Of a DNA stretch of 47,934 bases, positions 22,553 to 38,800 are shown piece after piece. This DNA is from a virus (taxonomy: Duplodnaviria; Heunggongvirae; Uroviricota; Caudoviricetes). The stretch's first letter is position 1. Every line of letters begins with the position of its first letter. Where the stretch lies: IMG/VR virus record IMGVR_UViG_2778261630_000003; one strand, 5' to 3'. Under the pieces are notes generated by a model. That model was not told the origin of the DNA. It searched no databases and saw only the letters and a program-made list of their open reading frames with translations. A program made the position numbers and the translations under genes.

Positions 22553-23296
22553 ATGCATCGCATAGACACGAAAACCGCGCAGAAGGATAAGTTCGGCGCG
22601 GGTAAGAACGGTTTTACCCGTGGTAACCCCCAGACCGGCACGCCTGCCACCGATCTGGATGATGACTACTTTGACATGTTGCAGGAAGAGCTTTGTGGCG
22701 TGGTGGAGGCATCCGGTGCCAGCCTGGAGAAGGGGCGAAACGACCAGTTGCTTACCGCGCTTCGTGCGCTGCTGTTAAGCCGCAAGAATCCGTTTGGTGA
22801 TATCAAATCGGATGGCACGGTGAAAACGGCTCTCGAAAACCTTGGTTTAGGAGAAGGCTCAGCATTGCCTGTTGGCGTACCTGTTCCGTGGCCCTCAGCC
22901 ACTCCGCCAACAGGCTGGCTGAAATGCAATGGTGCGGCTTTTTCTGCTGAAGAATACCCGGAACTGGCAAAGGCTTACCCGACAAATAAATTGCCAGATT
23001 TACGTGGTGAGTTTATTCGTGGCTGGGATGATGGGCGCGGCGTTGATTCAAGGCGTGCGGTGCTGTCAACACAAGAGCCAACTGTAGGTACTTTTTATGT
23101 GGGGCTAGCTATCATCTCGGGAACTTTGAGCGGCTCAGGTGCTAAATTTACCGATTCAGTAGGGATTGGATCAACCAGTAGTAACATTACCGTTAGCAAC
23201 GGTAATGACCAGTCCGTGTCGGGTACAGTGGCCGTTAACCCCGTCGATACCCGTCCACGCAACATTGCATTTAACTATATCGTGAGAGCAGCATAA
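22553..23296 (+). CDS. tail fibre protein; C-terminal part lies inside the invertible segment
   Basis: crossover site at 22830-22855 lies inside the ORF (...ENLGLGEG...); variable C-terminus downstream. Confidence 0.7.
22830..22855. repeat. invertase crossover site, left (gix/hix-like, 2-bp core TT)
   Basis: CTCTCGAAAACC-TT-GGTTTAGGAGAA; about 18 of 26 positions match the reverse complement of the site at 24757-24782. Confidence 0.7.
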
Positions 23297-23898
23297 TGGA
23301 TAAAGCAATATTAAATAGTGGACTTGTTGCTACAAAGGCAGGGGATATTACCGTTTATAACTATGATGGTGAAACTCGGGAATATATTTCCACTTCAAGT
23401 GAATATCTTGCCGTTGGTGTTGGTATCCCGGCATATTCCTGTCTGAATGCACCAGGTATACATAAGGCGGGTTATGCTATCTGTCGTTCTGTGAATTTAA
23501 ATTCATGGGAATATGTGCCAGACCATCGCGGTGAAATCGTCTATAACACCGAAACGGGAGAATCAAAACAAATCACAGCACCGGGTGATTACCCCGAAAA
23601 TACAACCACTATTGCCCCATTAACGCCATACGATAAATGGGATGGTGAGAAATGGGTGACCGATACTGAGGCACAGCATAGCGCCGCAGTAGACGCGGCA
23701 GAAGCACAGCGTCAGTCACTGATTGATGCTGCAATGGCTTCCATCGGTCTGATTCAGCTGAAATTACAGGCCGGACGGAAGCTGATGCAGGCAGAAACAA
23801 CCCGGCTTAACGCTGTGCTGGATTACATTGACGCGGTGACGGCAACAAATACCAGCACAGCGCCGGATGTCATCTGGCCTGAACTGCCGGAGGCGTAG
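23296..23898 (+). CDS. tail fibre assembly protein (orientation currently expressed)
   Basis: 200 aa, conserved C-terminal Tfa region ...TSTAPDVIWPELPEA. Confidence 0.7.
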   Translation: MDKAILNSGLVATKAGDITVYNYDGETREYISTSSEYLAVGVGIPAYSCLNAPGIHKAGYAICRSVNLNSWEYVPDHRGEIVYNTETGESKQITAPGDYPENTTTIAPLTPYDKWDGEKWVTDTEAQHSAAVDAAEAQRQSLIDAAMASIGLIQLKLQAGRKLMQAETTRLNAVLDYIDAVTATNTSTAPDVIWPELPEA

Positions 23899-24313
23899 GC
23901 CATTCAATATCTGGAGCACTGGAGGTATCAACCAGTTCCAGTGCGTCCAGATAATCCAGCCACAAATTATATTGCGCCAGTTCCTCACTTTTCAGACGAC
24001 CAATCGCCGCTTTGCCAGGCCACTGATGGGTATTGATGTAGGTATTGACTTCAGAAACCAAAGATATTTTTTTCATTTCAGCCGTCAACACCTCATCCTC
24101 TTTTGAAGGGGGTGGGGAATTAATCCATACTGGCCGTCCTGAACTGTCAGCGCCAATTTCTTTCCCTTCTGGATGCAGCCCAAGAAATTGCTCATATGTT
24201 TCTCTGGTAATTTCAATAACATCATCAGGAAGCGTTCCCGCATCCTCATATTCTGGAAACAATTCTTGCAGATAAAAACTTTTACTTCCGGGTGAAAAGA
24301 ATACTGAGTTCAT
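23870..24313 (-). CDS. tail fibre assembly protein (alternative, inverted)
   Basis: 147 aa, C-terminus ...TSSAPDIEWPTPPAVQAR parallels the + strand Tfa; convergent with it. Confidence 0.65.
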   Translation of the reverse strand: MNSVFFSPGSKSFYLQELFPEYEDAGTLPDDVIEITRETYEQFLGLHPEGKEIGADSSGRPVWINSPPPSKEDEVLTAEMKKISLVSEVNTYINTHQWPGKAAIGRLKSEELAQYNLWLDYLDALELVDTSSAPDIEWPTPPAVQAR

Positions 24314-24315
24314 TA

Positions 24316-24768
24316 TTACCGTCCAATGATTAATGCTGAGACGCTGGTATCTGAAGGAAAGGCTGCATTCAGTGGTTTGTCGACTTTGAACACAATCGTA
24401 TTATTCCCCCTGACAGCGGCAAAAGAACAAACCGCAGTCGCGTATGAACCTGTAATATTACTGGATACACCACCATAAGCTGTTGTTGATACCAGAGGGA
24501 TAACGCCCAGCACCTTATTAGGAAATACAAAGGGCAATGTGGCTGTGGCAATATAAGACTTATTAGAACCTGTGATGGCATAAGCATTATCAGTCATTCC
24601 ATTCATCGCCACTGGGCCGCTTATACTTACAGTAACCATCTGAATGATTAGCCCGTCAGGTTGACGAATCACAAAATTTCCATTGCCACCAGTAACCGTC
24701 CAGAAAGACATATCAGGGATTTGGTTTTCCCCGTTGCCCACATTCCGTTTTGCCGCTTCTCCCAAACC
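24316..24768 (-). CDS. alternative tail-fibre C-terminal variable segment (expressed only after inversion)
   Basis: reads from crossover site (..VGLGE..) on minus strand; no own start within the segment; ORF track shows it open to 24810. Confidence 0.6.
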   Translation of the reverse strand, partial: GLGEAAKRNVGNGENQIPDMSFWTVTGGNGNFVIRQPDGLIIQMVTVSISGPVAMNGMTDNAYAITGSNKSYIATATLPFVFPNKVLGVIPLVSTTAYGGVSSNITGSYATAVCSFAAVRGNNTIVFKVDKPLNAAFPSDTSVSALIIGR

Positions 24769-24782
24769 AACGTTTATAAAAA
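24757..24782. repeat. invertase crossover site, right
   Basis: TTCTCCCAAACC-AA-CGTTTATAAAAA, inverted relative to left site. Confidence 0.7.
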
Positions 24783-24836
24783 TGCATAAATAACGAGCAA
24801 ATGGCATCATTCCTGCTTTTGTCAGGGAGATCTACC

Positions 24837-25391
24837 ATGCTTATTGGCTATGTACGTGTGTCAACAAATGACCAGAACACAGATCTACAACGTAATGCGC
24901 TGAACTGTGCAGGATGCGAGCTGATTTTTGAAGACAAGATAAGCGGTACAAAGTCCGAAAGGCCGGGACTGAAAAAACTGCTCAGGACATTATCGGCAGG
25001 TGATACGCTGGTGGTCTGGAAACTGGACCGACTGGGGCGCAGTATGCGGCATCTTGTCGTGCTGGTGGAGGAGTTGCGCGAACGAGGCATCAACTTTCGT
25101 AGTCTGACGGATTCAATTGATACCAGTACCCCAATGGGGCGCTTTTTCTTTCATGTGATGGGTGCCCTGGCTGAAATGGAGCGTGAACTGATTGTTGAAA
25201 GAACAAAAGCTGGACTGGAAGCTGCTCGCGCACAGGGACGAATTGGTGGACGTCGTCCCAAACTTACACCAGAACAATGGGAACAGGCCGGACGATTAAT
25301 TGCATCAGGAGTTCCTCGCCAGAAGGTGGCGATTATCTATGATGTTGGTGTGTCAACTTTGTATAAGAGGTTTCCTGCAGGGGATAAATAA
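24837..25391 (+). CDS. pin: serine DNA invertase Pin
   Basis: MLIGYVRVSTNDQNTDLQRNAL...GRRPKL; matches remembered E. coli e14 Pin over essentially its full length. Confidence 0.95.
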   Translation: MLIGYVRVSTNDQNTDLQRNALNCAGCELIFEDKISGTKSERPGLKKLLRTLSAGDTLVVWKLDRLGRSMRHLVVLVEELRERGINFRSLTDSIDTSTPMGRFFFHVMGALAEMERELIVERTKAGLEAARAQGRIGGRRPKLTPEQWEQAGRLIASGVPRQKVAIIYDVGVSTLYKRFPAGDK

Positions 25392-25497: not shown

Positions 25498-26331
25498 ATG
25501 CATGTTTTTGATAACAATGGAATTGAACTGAAAGCTGAGTGTTCGATAGGTGAAGAGGATGGTGTTTATGGTCTAATCCTTGAGTCGTGGGGGCCGGGTG
25601 ACAGAAACAAAGATTACAATATCGCTCTTGATTATATCATTGAACGGTTGGTTGATTCTGGTGTATCCCAAGTCGTAGTATATCTGGCGTCATCATCAGT
25701 CAGAAAACATATGCATTCTTTGGATGAAAGAAAAATCCATCCTGGTGAATATTTTACTTTGATTGGTAATAGCCCCCGCGATATACGCTTGAAGATGTGT
25801 GGTTATCAGGCTTATTTTAGTCGTACGGGGAGAAAGGAAATTCCTTCCGGCAATAGAACGAAACGAATATTGATAAATGTTCCAGGTATTTATAGTGACA
25901 GTTTTTGGGCGTCTATAATACGTGGAGAACTATCAGAGCTTTCACAGCCTACAGATGATGAATCGCTTCTGAATATGAGGGTTAGTAAATTAATTAAGAA
26001 AACGTTGAGTCAACCCGAGGGCTCCAGGAAACCAGTTGAGGTAGAAAGACTACAAAAAGTTTATGTCCGAGACCCGATGGTAAAAGCTTGGATTTTACAG
26101 CAAAGTAAAGGTATATGTGAAAACTGTGGTAAAAATGCTCCGTTTTATTTAAATGATGGAAACCCATATTTGGAAGTGCATCATGTAATTCCCCTGTCTT
26201 CAGGTGGTGCTGATACAACAGATAACTGTGTTGCCCTTTGTCCGAATTGCCATAGAGAATTGCACTATAGTAAAAATGCAAAAGAACTAATCGAGATGCT
26301 TTACGTTAATATAAACCGATTACAGAAATAA
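25498..26331 (+). CDS. mcrA: 5-methylcytosine-specific restriction enzyme McrA (HNH)
   Basis: 277 aa MHVFDNNGIELKAE...HHVIPLSSGGADTTDNCVALCPNCH; matches remembered e14 McrA. Confidence 0.95.
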   Translation: MHVFDNNGIELKAECSIGEEDGVYGLILESWGPGDRNKDYNIALDYIIERLVDSGVSQVVVYLASSSVRKHMHSLDERKIHPGEYFTLIGNSPRDIRLKMCGYQAYFSRTGRKEIPSGNRTKRILINVPGIYSDSFWASIIRGELSELSQPTDDESLLNMRVSKLIKKTLSQPEGSRKPVEVERLQKVYVRDPMVKAWILQQSKGICENCGKNAPFYLNDGNPYLEVHHVIPLSSGGADTTDNCVALCPNCHRELHYSKNAKELIEMLYVNINRLQK

Positions 26332-26564: not shown

Positions 26565-26729
26565 ATGCTGCGCCATATGGGCTGGACTGAAGCCGCAGAC
26601 CTGATTGTTAAAGGTATGGAAGGCGCAATCAACGCCAAGACCGTAACCTATGACTTCGAACGTCTGATGGAAGGCGCTAAACTGCTGAAATGCAGCGAGT
26701 TTGGTGACGCGATCATCAAGAACATGTAA
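26565..26729 (+). pseudogene. icd: isocitrate dehydrogenase 3' fragment (icd C-terminal 54 codons), attachment-site-associated
   Basis: [54 protein letters not shown]; in-frame stop immediately upstream, so only the 3' end is present. Confidence 0.9.
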
Positions 26730-26742
26730 TCTCTACATGTGT

Positions 26743-26770
26743 TAAATATTATAACGGGCGTATAACACGC
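26743..26770 (+). terminator. intrinsic terminator after icd fragment
   Basis: AACGGGCGT-ataac-ACGCCCGTT followed by GTTTT. Confidence 0.7.
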
Positions 26771-26786
26771 CCGTTGTTTTATGATG

Positions 26787-26822
26787 ATGTAAAATCTTCC
26801 CCAAAACTTTCCCCAAAACCCT
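26787..26822 (+). repeat. three tandem TTCCCCAAAAC repeats in the att/int-proximal region
   Basis: units at 26787-26797, 26799-26809 and 26812-26822, between the icd terminator and the int 3' end. Confidence 0.8.
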
Positions 26823-26842: not shown

Positions 26843-27985
26843 CTATGCTGTTTTGATATCTACGATAATCCAGTCTTTACCACGATCATCATTGTATCGG
26901 TCGGTCATTTTTCTGGATTTATGGCCTAACAACTTTTGCGTATCCAGACCCTGTTCCCGATATAACCGTTCTGACAGAGATCGCTGCTCATGAAATGTGG
27001 GCGCAGTTCCTTGCTCCCATTTTATGCCACATTTTTCCCTGGCCTTTTTAAAAGCCGTTGTCAGAGTATTCGCAGAAACCTGGTCTCCTCTGTTTGCTTG
27101 AGAGGTTGTGTGACGGTAATGGACCAGATATTTACTAACAACAGCATCCCTGCACTGAGATATAACTTCACGAAGGGTAATATTCAGAGCATCGCATTTC
27201 AGGTTAAGCGGAATAGCAAGTTTTGAACCGGTTTTTTCCTGAGTAATGTGCAACATGTCGTCCTAGATATCAGAGAATTTCAAATTGCAGATATCGCCTA
27301 AACGTTGTCCAGTGACAAGAGCAAGTAGCATCCCGCATTTTAAATAGGGCTGCCGTCTGCTTACGCTGTCAAATATTGCCTGCCATTCGGGCAGTGATAA
27401 TCTTTGGCGGTTTACTCGATTTCGCGGTTGTTTTGTTGCCTGCGCTGGGTTAAATCCTGGCGGAACATGTCCTGCGTGTTGTGCTTCTTTGAAGACGTCG
27501 ATTAACACCATTCTCACGACTTGCGCCATCCTGTTATGACCTTCAGCCTTTACAGCATCAATTATTTCGGCAATATCAAGTGCGGTAATATCCTTGAGGT
27601 GTTGCATTCCACAATGCTCACGGAAAAGACGAATGGGTTTGCCTTTTTGCCGATAGGAGTTGGGTCTTAGTTCATTATGTTGCAGCCTGTCCTCCTGGAT
27701 AGAAATATATTTATCAAGCCATTCTGTCACCGTAATGTCTGAGCGCCTGCCTTTCATTCTTTCCAGACGCTCATTGACGCTTAATATTTGTCGGGTACGT
27801 TGTTCAGCAATAATGGTATTTGCTTCAGTAGCAACTTGTTTTGCTTCATTCTCATCAGTTCCTAAGCTATGAAAACGACCGGATAGTGGATGTTTGTATT
27901 GCCAATATACCTTTCCGGTTCGCTTATCTAATTTGCAATATAAATTGGGTATAGAGATTTTGTGAGATCGGGGTCTAGCAGCCAT
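26843..27985 (-). pseudogene. int: tyrosine integrase (lambda Int family) interrupted by a single in-frame amber codon
   Basis: ORFs 27263-27985 and 26843-27256 are in the same frame separated only by TAG (plus-strand CTA at 27263-27265); C-terminal part has HEQRSL...LLGHKS...RYNDDRG catalytic motifs. Confidence 0.85.
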
Positions 27986-28211
27986 CAGCGATTATCCGTT
28001 GGAGTTTTGGGTTTGCGTTTATTGGGAGTTGCGGTTCTGCAAGCGTTCCTACAAAACGGGAATTTCGGTCAATCATCCAGTAGCGACCAACTTTTATAGC
28101 GGGTGGGGCCATCATTTTCCCTTGCGCGTATTTTTTCAGAACTCGCTCACTTGGTGCTAAGTCCCCAAATTCTTCTTTAGCCCAGTCCTGTAAAGTGATT
28201 AGTCGAGACAT
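27975..28211 (-). CDS. xis: excisionase
   Basis: small basic protein with LITLQDW and PPAIKVGRYW resembling lambda Xis; overlaps int start. Confidence 0.7.
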   Translation of the reverse strand: MSRLITLQDWAKEEFGDLAPSERVLKKYAQGKMMAPPAIKVGRYWMIDRNSRFVGTLAEPQLPINANPKLQRIIADGC

Positions 28212-33256: not shown

Positions 33257-33480
33257 ATTTCCATTTCACGCTCTTTAACAATAAGCAATCAACTTAACAG
33301 TCAATTCAAACTAAAGGAGTCAATTATGCAACCACTTACATACCAACAGACTAGCGGATTTAGCCCGACTGCGGTGATAAATCGTTCTCAAACAAAACAG
33401 GCGCCAGGCCACGAAAAATCCGTGATGCCGTTCGCGCCTGGTCGGCTGCAGATAATCAGGATGTTGTTGCCGCACTCATT

Positions 33481-33864
33481 GTGAATGAGTATCGGGAGCA
33501 GGGCGGCGGCACCATCGATTTCCCTGATGATGTCAGCCGTGCACGCCAGAAGCTGTTCCGCTTCCTCGATAACAAATTCGATTCTGAAAAATACCGAAAT
33601 AACGTGCGTGAACTGACCCCGGCAATTCTGGCGGTACTACCGCTGGAATATCGCGGCCACCTGGTTGAGCAGGATAGCTTCATGGCTCGGCTGGCTGAAA
33701 TGGAAAAGGAACTCAGTGAGGCAAAGCAGGCGGTCATTCTCAACGCACCACGCCACCAGAAACTGAAGGAGATGAGTGAAGGCATTGTGTCGATGTTTCG
33801 TGTGGACCCGGATCTGGCTGGTCCATTAATGGCGATGGTTACCACCATGCTGGGGGCAATATGA
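33481..33864 (+). CDS. YdaT-like protein (CII-position regulator family)
   Basis: NEYREQGGGTIDFP and TPAILAVLPLEYR resemble Rac YdaT; annotated from GTG 33481 but similarity seems to extend upstream in the same frame without a start; an RBS-led ATG at 33326 is in another frame. Confidence 0.5.
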   Translation: MNEYREQGGGTIDFPDDVSRARQKLFRFLDNKFDSEKYRNNVRELTPAILAVLPLEYRGHLVEQDSFMARLAEMEKELSEAKQAVILNAPRHQKLKEMSEGIVSMFRVDPDLAGPLMAMVTTMLGAI

Positions 33865-35827: not shown

Positions 35828-38800
35828 ATGACCACTGTGAATAAAAAGTTAAAAAAAACTGCATCTGGCGCGATTACATGGTCGGTAATTGTTACCCAGA
35901 TATTATCTCCAGTTTCTCTTTCTTTGATCCCAGCAAACAGTTTTGCATCTTCTGGTAATAAAGATGTTACGCAAACTTATGCCAGCGATGAGCATGCAAA
36001 TAAAGTGGCCTCATTTGCAGCAAGTGCAGGTCAGAGCCTGGCGAATAATAATGCAAGTAGTTTTGCTGTAAATACTTTATCAACTCAGGCGACAAAAGAG
36101 GTCGTCGACTGGTTGCAACAATATGGCAATGCGCGCATCAAGCTTAATGTCGATGATTCTTTTTCCTTGAAGGATTCATCATTCGACTTTTTATATCCAT
36201 GGCTGGATACTCAGGATTATGTGCTATTCAGTCAGACATCACTACATCGTACTGATGACCGAAATCAGACCAATATTGGTTTGGGGATTCGTCATTTCAC
36301 TCCTGATAACGCAATGTTGGGTGCGAATGTTTTCTATGATTACGATTTAAGTCGCAGTCACTCTCGTGCAGGTTTTGGGGTTGAGTACTGGAGAGATTAT
36401 TTCAGGCTTGGTGTAAATACCTATTTTGGTTTGTCTGACTGGAAGAACAGTCGGGATATTGATGATTATCTGGAAAGACCCGCAAATGGCTGGGATTTTT
36501 CTGCTGAAGGATGGCTACCTGCTTATCCGCAATTAGGGGCATCCATTCAGTTTGAAAAATATTATGGTAAAAATGTCGGGTTATTTGGAAGCGATAATCT
36601 GCAGGAAAACCCTTACGCAGTTACTGGGGGAATTTCTTATACACCAGTTCCTCTGATTAAGTTTTCTGCACAGCATAAGCAAGGACAGAGCAACGTTCAC
36701 GATACAACCTTCGGTGTTGAGTTTAATTATCGCCCGGGCGTTTCCCTGGCTGAACAGCTTAGCAGCGATAATGTTGCAGTTATGCGAGAAGTCCAGAATC
36801 GGCGTTATGATTTTGTTGAACGAAATAACAACATTGTTCTGGAGTACAAGAAGAAGCATGCACTGAAAATCAGTTTGCCAGAGTCTGTTCAGGGGGAGGG
36901 GGAATCAATCATCCCTGTAACACTGACAATCAACAATGCTAGTGGTGGTATCAAGTCTGTACAGTGGAATGATAGTGCATTCACTGCGGCTGGCGGCAAG
37001 ATCAGTGGAAATGGCACATCATGGCAGATCACTTTACCGGCTTATAAAAGCGAAGGTGTAAATTCGTGGAATGTTGGAGCCACAGTCCAGGATAACAGAG
37101 GCAATGTTTCCAACTATGCCGTTATGAATATCAGCGTTAATAATAGTGGTGTCTCGACAGCGGATTCATCTTTTACGCTGGATGGGGATTCGTCTCCGAC
37201 GATCTCTGCTGATGGTCAATCCACTTATCCAATAGTATTAAGCCTGAAAGACAGTAACGGTAAGGCATTAACCGGACTGGCTGATGACATTGAAATGTCT
37301 GTGGAATTTACTGCGGATAGCAATAGTGCTCGACAGCGTGAAACGGTAACTGCTCCGTCATTAGGCGCGGTAGAGGAAATCTCTGCTGGTGTATATCGCT
37401 CTGTTCTGGCTGCTGGTTCGCAGGCTGGGACGGTACGTGTAACTGCAAAAGTTCAGGGAAAAACCTTTACTCTGAATATTAAGCAGGCAGCCGTTATTGA
37501 TAGTGATGTATCGACAGCGGATTCATCTTTTACGCTGGATGGGGATTCGTCTCCGACGATCTCTGCTGATGGTCAATCCACTTATCCAATAGTATTAAGC
37601 CTGAAAGACAGTAACGGTAAGGCATTAACCGGACTGGCTGATGACATTGAAATGTCTGTGGAATTTACTGCGGATAGCAATAGTGCTCGACAGCGTGAAA
37701 CGGTAACTGCTCCGTCATTAGGCGCGGTAGAGGAAATCTCTGCTGGTGTATATCGCTCTGTTCTGGCTGCTGGTTCGCAGGCTGGGACGGTACGTGTAAC
37801 TGCAAAAGTTCAGGGAAAAACATTTACTCTCAGTATTAAGCAAACAGCAGCAACAGAACCTGATTCTGAGGTCAGTGCTGTTTTAACCGCTGCACCAGCA
37901 GAACAGGTAGTTGGTTACAATATCAATCTACAACTGGCAGTGAAGGATTCACAAGGAAATGCAATCACTGGTGATAACACTCTGAGCTTTTATGCTCTTA
38001 ACCAGGCAGAAGGAGTCGAGTTTGGGACTGTAACGGAAAAAGACGGTGTCTATAGCGCGACAGTAACTTCAAAACGAGCTGGTAAGATTACTATCGGTGT
38101 TAAATCTGATAGTCATGATTTCTCAGGTGTTAAGAAAGAAATCACCTTTATTGAGGACCGGCAGCAGGTTACATTCTCTCAGTTTGAAGCCAGCCAAAAT
38201 AATGCATTGGCTGATGGAAAACAGAGAAATATGGTAACTGTAAGCCTTGCGGACCGTTTCGGCAATGTTGTTCCTGGTTATGCTGTCACATTGTCTTTAC
38301 CAGCAGGGATAACTCAAGTTGGTGGTGAACATGCTGTTTCAACTGACGAAAATGGTAATGCTATTTTTGCGTTAATAAGCTCCACTCCGGGGTCTTACGT
38401 GATTACAGCTCATGCTGGTTCTCAGATGTCTACTGAGTTAACAGTGACCTTTGCATCAAATATGACCGGAGCTTCACTGTCACTGACGCCTGAAAGCAGT
38501 AGTTTAATTTCCAATATTCCTGCTAATGGTAAGGATGCAGCGGTATTAGATGTGCAGCTGACAAATACGAATGCGTCGGTCAATGGGCAAAAGATTCAGC
38601 TCATCACCTCATCTGAAGGATTATCTGTACCAACAAATATCGTGACTGATTCAACAGGGCATGTTTCTGTTCCGCTTACAACGGTGAAAGCTGGTGAGTA
38701 CACGGTGACTGCACGGGTGACTGACGGTTCCCATAGCGTGGAATCTGGCAGCGTTAAGTTAACTTTTGTGCCCGATGTTGCTTCTGCAGAACTTACTATG

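Follow-up and report, generated by a model that had tools for sequence, protein, structure and literature searches.

A premature amber codon in the integrase gene of a defective lambdoid prophage beside icd in Escherichia coli

Results

One amber codon interrupts an otherwise open integrase frame

The int gene of the window, by which we mean the whole 47,934-nucleotide stretch of DNA that was analysed, is very probably a loss-of-function W241stop allele in a grounded cryptic lambdoid prophage, which occupies the phage-21/e14 site at the 3' end of icd. According to this reading, a G>A transition in TGG stops Int translation after residue 240, and the truncated Int keeps the arm- and core-binding domains together with the first catalytic arginine but is deprived of the rest. 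The element would then be unable to excise itself and would be "grounded", where the stop is one of several decay lesions in the remnant and was inherited in an E. coli lineage. The type of event is well known, as defective recombinase genes are a recognised route to prophage grounding according to a review (PMC6379469), and PGAP/RefSeq already flags the gene as a pseudogene with an "internal stop" in two of the complete E. coli genomes that carry it, A3 and H22. The features of int and the adjoining xis are as follows.

26843-27985, minus strand: int pseudogene, W241amber tyrosine recombinase, 380 codons (ORF reading, CFT073 alignment, alignment to lambda Int 1z1b, Pfam, PGAP)
27263-27265, minus strand: premature TAG (amber) in place of TGG for Trp241 (TGG in CFT073, in 38 of 38 IMG/VR contigs, and in both species-representative genome matches)
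27266-27985, minus strand: N-terminal 240-aa ORF with the arm-binding domain, the core-binding domain, and the start of the catalytic domain including R228, which is R212 in lambda (ORF, Pfam, lambda alignment; 136 contigs)
26843-27256, minus strand: C-terminal 137-aa ORF from Met244, two codons past the stop, with K251, H332, R335, H355, and Y364 (Phage_integrase profile positions 57-168; predicted ORF)
27975-28211, minus strand: xis, intact excisionase gene of 78 aa, overlapping the int start by 11 nt (Pfam Exc, E=6.7e-6; WP_000088653.1 annotated in A3 and H22)

A preliminary description of this DNA had presented the gene as an integrase of about 380 codons that was conserved apart from a single in-frame amber codon, and this was borne out by the reading frame. 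The ATG at 27985 starts a 240-codon ORF, which is closed by TAG at 27265-27263 (plus-strand CTA at 27263-27265), and the peptide around the stop reads CNLKFSDI*DDMLHITQEKTG. Past the stop, the frame continues with D-D-M and then 137 more codons up to the TAG at 26845-26843, and the TAG at codon 241 is the only in-frame stop within the 380 codons before the terminal one. The downstream catalytic motifs, which had been described as intact, are present as HEQRSL (H332, R335), LLGHKS (H355), and RYNDDRG (Y364). The preliminary description had proposed a comparison with related int genes to identify the original codon, and when we aligned the gene with the intact CFT073 allele (WP_000741334.1), the ancestral codon 241 proved to be TGG (Trp241), which one G>A transition, at gene position 722, had turned into the stop. 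The gene is of the lambda-Int type and is intact except for this one nonsense change.

The stop separates one catalytic arginine from the other catalytic residues

To describe the protein family, we used the Int sequence with codon 241 repaired. Lambda Int (1z1b) aligned with the whole of the repaired Int (E=2.4e-55), and Pfam assigned residues 1-71 to Arm-DNA-bind_1 (PF09003, E=1e-28) and residues 200-367 to Phage_integrase (PF00589). Comparing the catalytic residues of the two proteins, R228, K251, H332/R335, H355, and Y364 of this Int correspond to R212, K235, H308/R311, H333, and Y342 of lambda Int, respectively, and residue 241 aligns to Val225 of lambda, a position that is non-catalytic and not invariant. 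Between lambda Int (PDB 1z1b, 1z1g, 1ae9) and the window Int, the arm-binding domain and each of the six catalytic positions are therefore conserved, whereas the window Int has its att in icd and not at attB-lambda, lambda has Val225 at the position of residue 241, and the window product ends after 240 residues.

The arm-binding domain and the R-K-H-R-H/W-Y catalytic residues that characterise the lambda-Int type are thus encoded, but not on one uninterrupted polypeptide, as the TAG parts R228 from the other five. The preliminary description had held that the stop inactivates int, and this is supported by the position of the catalytic residues, five of six lying past the stop and R228 alone being kept in the 240-aa product. 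Considering the mechanism of tyrosine recombinases, this product is predicted to be incapable of cutting or rejoining DNA and of carrying out strand exchange, because the lysine, the His-x-x-Arg, the second histidine, and the tyrosine nucleophile are missing. Judged from its sequence, int of the window is a lambda-Int family member by descent, but a pseudogene.

The prophage remnant lies at the icd attachment site in tandem with a myovirus

The region between the two prophages of the window and the remnant that owns int contain the following features.

26565-26729, plus strand: icd', the last 54 codons and the stop codon of isocitrate dehydrogenase (aligns to the K-12 e14 start inside icd, L003:1710)
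26751-26787, plus strand: terminator-like hairpin (26751-26777) and T-run after the icd' stop codon
26797-26832, plus strand: three exact tandem copies of TTCCCCAAAAC, candidate arm-type Int binding sites (pattern match; function assigned from position only)
26565-47934, no strand assigned: defective lambdoid (phage-21-site, NC-SV-like) prophage remnant with the int pseudogene (99.94% identity to A3 and 99.91% to H22; annotation there)

Insertion at the icd 3' end with a duplicated 3' segment of icd was evident, as icd' stands beside int in the window and full-length icd adjoins int in A3. The two prophages meet at position 26565, where the homology to A3 also begins. Since this breakpoint coincides with the annotated start of K-12 e14 inside icd, the two elements share one crossover point and lie there in tandem. 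TTCCCCAAAAC has three matches between icd' and the int stop codon, all within 36 nt, which are the only ones in the whole window. From this placement, the repeats are likely to be the arm-type Int sites of a 21-type attachment region.

The DNA to the left of 26565 belongs to a different prophage, an SfV/SfIV/e14-family myovirus that ends with pinE (24801-25391) and mcrA (25498-26331). Its late region at 1-26564 is apparently complete, with terminase, portal, capsid, sheath, tape measure, baseplate, and tail fibres, and its best phage match was vB_EcoM-720R4 (97.3% over 80%). Beside pinE, at 22553-25391, both strands carry ORFs for tail fibres and their assembly, an arrangement typical of a Pin-invertible host-range segment such as that of e14. 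The exact mcrA-icd'-int junction had no match among complete E. coli genomes. In H22, the same tandem layout was found, with a myovirus of about 97% identity and a DUF262 gene in place of mcrA, and in A3 and each of the ten contexts that were obtained through an exact match to the 240-aa product, the remnant is a single prophage beside intact icd without a myovirus neighbour.

From 26565 to the window end, the remnant differs from A3 by 12 mismatches with no gaps, and its alignment with H22 contains one gap. It carries xis, exo-bet-gam-kil, cI/cro, a frameshifted ydaT, O/P, cargo, the nin region, quuD, essD, and a truncated gpJ. The holin gene essD abuts the truncated gpJ (44998-45213 onward to 47934), as it also does in A3 and H22, and, by the annotation of these two genomes, none of the other lysis genes and no head or tail genes are left. 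A 625-aa ORF on the minus strand of this part (46005-47882) looks like an antisense artefact of gpJ. The ydaT-like gene (about 33326-33864) is frameshifted at matching positions in A3 and H22. The int gene thus combines a stop that is absent from functional orthologues with other decay in the same element (ydaT and essD/gpJ), as is found in a pseudogene of a cryptic prophage. In three other carriers of the int stop (L048, L050, and L055), ydaT is intact (179 aa), which suggests that the int stop is older than the ydaT frameshift or that recombination has occurred since.

The cargo of the remnant spans 35828-44408. One of its genes encodes an invasin/intimin-like inverse autotransporter of 1,302 aa and contains a stretch of about 355 nt that is repeated in tandem (37132-37485 and 37488-37842). 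Two others, both on the minus strand, encode an alpha/beta hydrolase (39773-40816) and an OmpC-like porin (43326-44408). Because the prophage has no morphogenesis genes, loss of Int would affect its excision only and not phage production. It had been suggested in the preliminary description that loss of int would stabilise the defective prophage; this is in line with our analysis, according to which an element that has lost Int should stay where it is. The loss may have been neutral, or it may have been favoured for locking in the cargo genes.

The stop allele is rare, real, and inherited

Of about 1,660 complete E. coli genomes with the int segment, only three contain an exact match to a 71-mer centred on the stop, namely A3 and A26, both from Australian wildlife, and H22, from a Czech human; the stop is thus carried by about 0.2% of complete-genome orthologues and absent from about 99.8%. 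In a 15-billion-protein collection (NCBI, ENA, and Logan), the exact 240-aa product was present on 136 contigs and the 137-aa ORF on 173 contigs, where the latter count is a computational gene-caller prediction and not a measure of expression. Among the ten DNA contexts that we fetched by the exact 240-aa product and read directly, nine have TAG and one has TGA. No base of int differs between the window and A3, a complete genome, or any of eight contigs from drafts or metagenomes (L046-L049 and L051-L054), and int of H22 has the same TAG and one further SNP. In a pattern scan with N at the position of the codon, codon 241 was TGG in all 40 viral and representative matches, which comprise 38 IMG/VR contigs, the E. 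albertii type strain, and one gut MAG, and the TAG allele was found in none of the viral contigs or species-representative genomes scanned. Among the viral and representative contigs that were fetched, 35 of the 36 full-length int copies are intact.

The host flanks of the carriers, taken as 9.2 kb from icd to roxA, are 0-78 SNPs apart (up to 0.85%), with 36-78 SNPs between those that have diverged. The carriers also differ in later lesions, with ydaT intact or split, exo truncated in some, and the adhesin gene broken in some. Because the host flanks have diverged, the int stop, as judged from these comparisons, is an inherited lesion of an E. coli lineage and not a fresh one. It is young only in the sense that int has gained almost no more changes (one SNP, in H22). 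As such, the "recent inactivation" of the preliminary description holds with regard to inactivation, whereas "recent" applies only in a relative sense, considering that more than 100 assemblies from Australia and Europe share the allele and that the flanks differ by 0.4-0.85%.

Other codons of int have also become stops

Codon 241 is a stop in more than one sequence context. In L050 (10721-10723), TAG at codon 241 stands on another synonymous background with 8 differences, one of which is a single base upstream of the stop codon, and in L055 (10410-10412), codon 241 is TGA. The ATA-TGG sense parent of L050 and L055 seems to be common in complete genomes, given the many one-mismatch matches. 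These contexts suggest that codon 241 was hit independently at least twice and probably three times, while the stop of L050 could conceivably have come from a short gene-conversion patch instead of a new mutation.

The look-up by exact product could detect codon-241 stops only, and as a control, we looked up ten other predicted transition-accessible nonsense products. Six of them exist: W89*, W201*, Q212*, Q227*, Q277*, and W323*. Single in-frame stops were confirmed in DNA for W201 (TAG in L059-L061) and W89 (TAG in L062; TGA in L063 and L064), and stops at Q212, Q227, Q277, and W323 probably also exist. There are 42 G:C>A:T routes to a stop in int, distributed across 36 codons, with two of these in codon 241. 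Considering these 42 routes and the very deep sampling, recurrence at Trp codons is as expected from mutation. W241* was found on 136 contigs against at most 19 for each other nonsense allele tested, and this abundance reflects clonal spread, W241* being no more than the allele that happened to be carried by the most successful lineage. The notion of codon 241 as a special or selected site is countered by the control alleles at W89 and W201 and by the number of stop routes. A Dcm (CCWGG) deamination hotspot was also ruled out, since inspection of the context TCTGGGAC revealed no CCWGG.

Discussion

The window differs from the common allele by a single base, as would be the case if a sequencing or assembly error had replaced a true TGG. 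Such an error is very unlikely, because the identical allele occurs in many independent assemblies, including three independently assembled complete genomes, and because the exact product is found on contigs from NCBI, ENA, and Logan, whose ten inspected contexts all have a stop (nine TAG and one TGA); we therefore ruled it out, the residual probability being negligible. The preliminary description had also raised conditional expression, in which int would be expressed only in an amber-suppressor (supE/supF) host and excision would be host-dependent. The stop is indeed amber, and insertion of Gln or Tyr might be tolerated at residue 241, which is Val225 in lambda and Trp in IntE. However, ARAGORN detected no tRNA genes in the window, and when the proposed check for host suppressor alleles was run on six Gln and Tyr loci of the carrier A3, which has the identical prophage, none of them was mutant: the anticodons of the tRNA-Gln genes glnU/W/V/X were CTG/CTG/TTG/TTG and those of tyrT/V were GTA/GTA, all wild type. 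A3 is therefore neither supE nor supF. In addition, the stop is not conserved, being absent from nearly all orthologues (about 99.8%), the sister allele at codon 241 is TGA, which is unreadable by an amber suppressor, and the other alleles (TAG and TGA at W89, TAG at W201) form the pattern of random knock-out rather than that of a designed amber site. Strong amber suppressors are a feature of laboratory strains. With the wild-type Gln and Tyr anticodons of A3 and a tRNA-free window, we decided against a suppressor host, and conditional expression of int seems highly improbable. Low-level natural read-through of the UAG is conceivable.

The truncation itself might have been selected, with the 240-aa fragment kept as a DNA-binder, for example as a dominant-negative on arm sites against 21-type phages, or with the halves 1-240 and 244-380 reassembling as a weak split recombinase. 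Such selection would fit the three contexts that have a stop at codon 241 (two synonymous backgrounds with TAG and one with TGA), the status of W241* as by far the commonest nonsense allele tested, and the intact candidate arm-type repeats beside int. Furthermore, Met244 comes just after the stop, and the G>A change, by which UGGGAC becomes UAGGAC, improves a Shine-Dalgarno-like AGGA that lies four nt upstream of the Met244 AUG, so that translation might restart at Met244, two codons past the stop, and the C-terminal fragment might be made. Against this, the look-up was limited to codon-241 stops and the controls show that truncation length is unconstrained, the abundance of the allele is that of clonal spread with 2 of 42 transition routes in codon 241, and both fragments are known as predicted ORFs only. 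SfV/e14-family phages are still integrated beside the remnant in the window and H22, which is a weak argument, as a different Int is expected for them. We consider selection for the truncated form unlikely, with a small chance of being correct. The chance is slim that the truncation is not neutral in the sense that the fragment, alone or with the restarted 137-aa piece, acts on the intact TTCCCCAAAAC repeats and thereby holds the remnant or interferes with 21-type phages; if true, this would explain the three-context stop at codon 241 and the commonest allele. In the case of the tandem neighbour, an SfV/e14-family prophage could supply Int in trans, by which the remnant's own int would be dispensable and the remnant mobile. 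An e14-family phage does stand in tandem at the same icd crossover point in the window and H22, and IntE of K-12 is 60% identical to the window Int. However, A3 and the ten exact-product contexts (nine TAG and one TGA) are single prophages with no such neighbour, the left att of the tandem remnant is a hybrid with a foreign arm, and int of the upstream phage lies beyond the window. Int/Xis of 21 and e14 reportedly excise each other's prophage only poorly. Supply of Int in trans thus has a faint chance.

The loss-of-function allele in a grounded prophage, which we prefer, can be placed among known elements. The isolated phages ev017 and PhiR57_1 have an Int with 100% identity to the repaired protein, the Int of 4A7 and Perceval reaches 99.7%, and matches at ≥95% were obtained for 28 phage records. 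Over int-xis-icd, the DNA shows 99.7% identity to E. coli NC101, whose NC-SV prophage is described as intact and lying at the phage 21 site in icd (PMC12803456); the link to phage 21 is made through this description of NC-SV and the DNA identity to NC101. The icd-site lambdoid phages (NC-SV and Escherichia phages ev017, PhiR57_1, 4A7, and Perceval) share with the window the order icd 3' end, int, xis, whereas in the window codon 241 is a stop and the prophage is devoid of lysis and morphogenesis genes. The svsR sRNA of NC-SV was considered for its relevance and set aside, as it sits at the cI 3' end, away from int.

IntE of the K-12 element e14 uses the same icd crossover point, is 60% identical to the window Int, and has Trp at the equivalent of residue 241, and both genes reside in cryptic elements. 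In contrast with the window int, intE is intact in K-12, and ymfD, ymfE, and lit lie between intE and icd. Both e14 and the element upstream in the window are members of the SfV-like myovirus family, which does not include the lambdoid remnant that owns int. When compared with the grounded cryptic prophages that have been reviewed (PMC6379469), the window likewise has a defective recombinase gene in a decaying prophage that is kept with its cargo, and nothing essential differs; what is additional here is that several independent single nonsense mutations have arisen in this int across E. coli.

In practice, int should be treated as a pseudogene and the element as a fixed cryptic prophage with an adhesin-like autotransporter, a hydrolase, and a porin, which matters little beyond annotation. 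A modest added value is that the same int was knocked out independently several times by single G>A changes in the Trp codons W89, W201, and W241, with both TAG and TGA as outcomes. This series of nonsense alleles is a clean natural example of grounding, and it could serve to test for selection on the loss of integrase.

Some minor observations concern the carriers and their labels. The adhesin gene is fragmented in the carriers L049, L054, and L055. The int gene was also present on a contig of a MAG named "uncultured Sutterella sp." (L006, USAL01000018.1), and short, partial int proteins were labelled Staphylococcus aureus and Salmonella Oslo (P0030; P0054); these three labels are probably binning or contamination artefacts.
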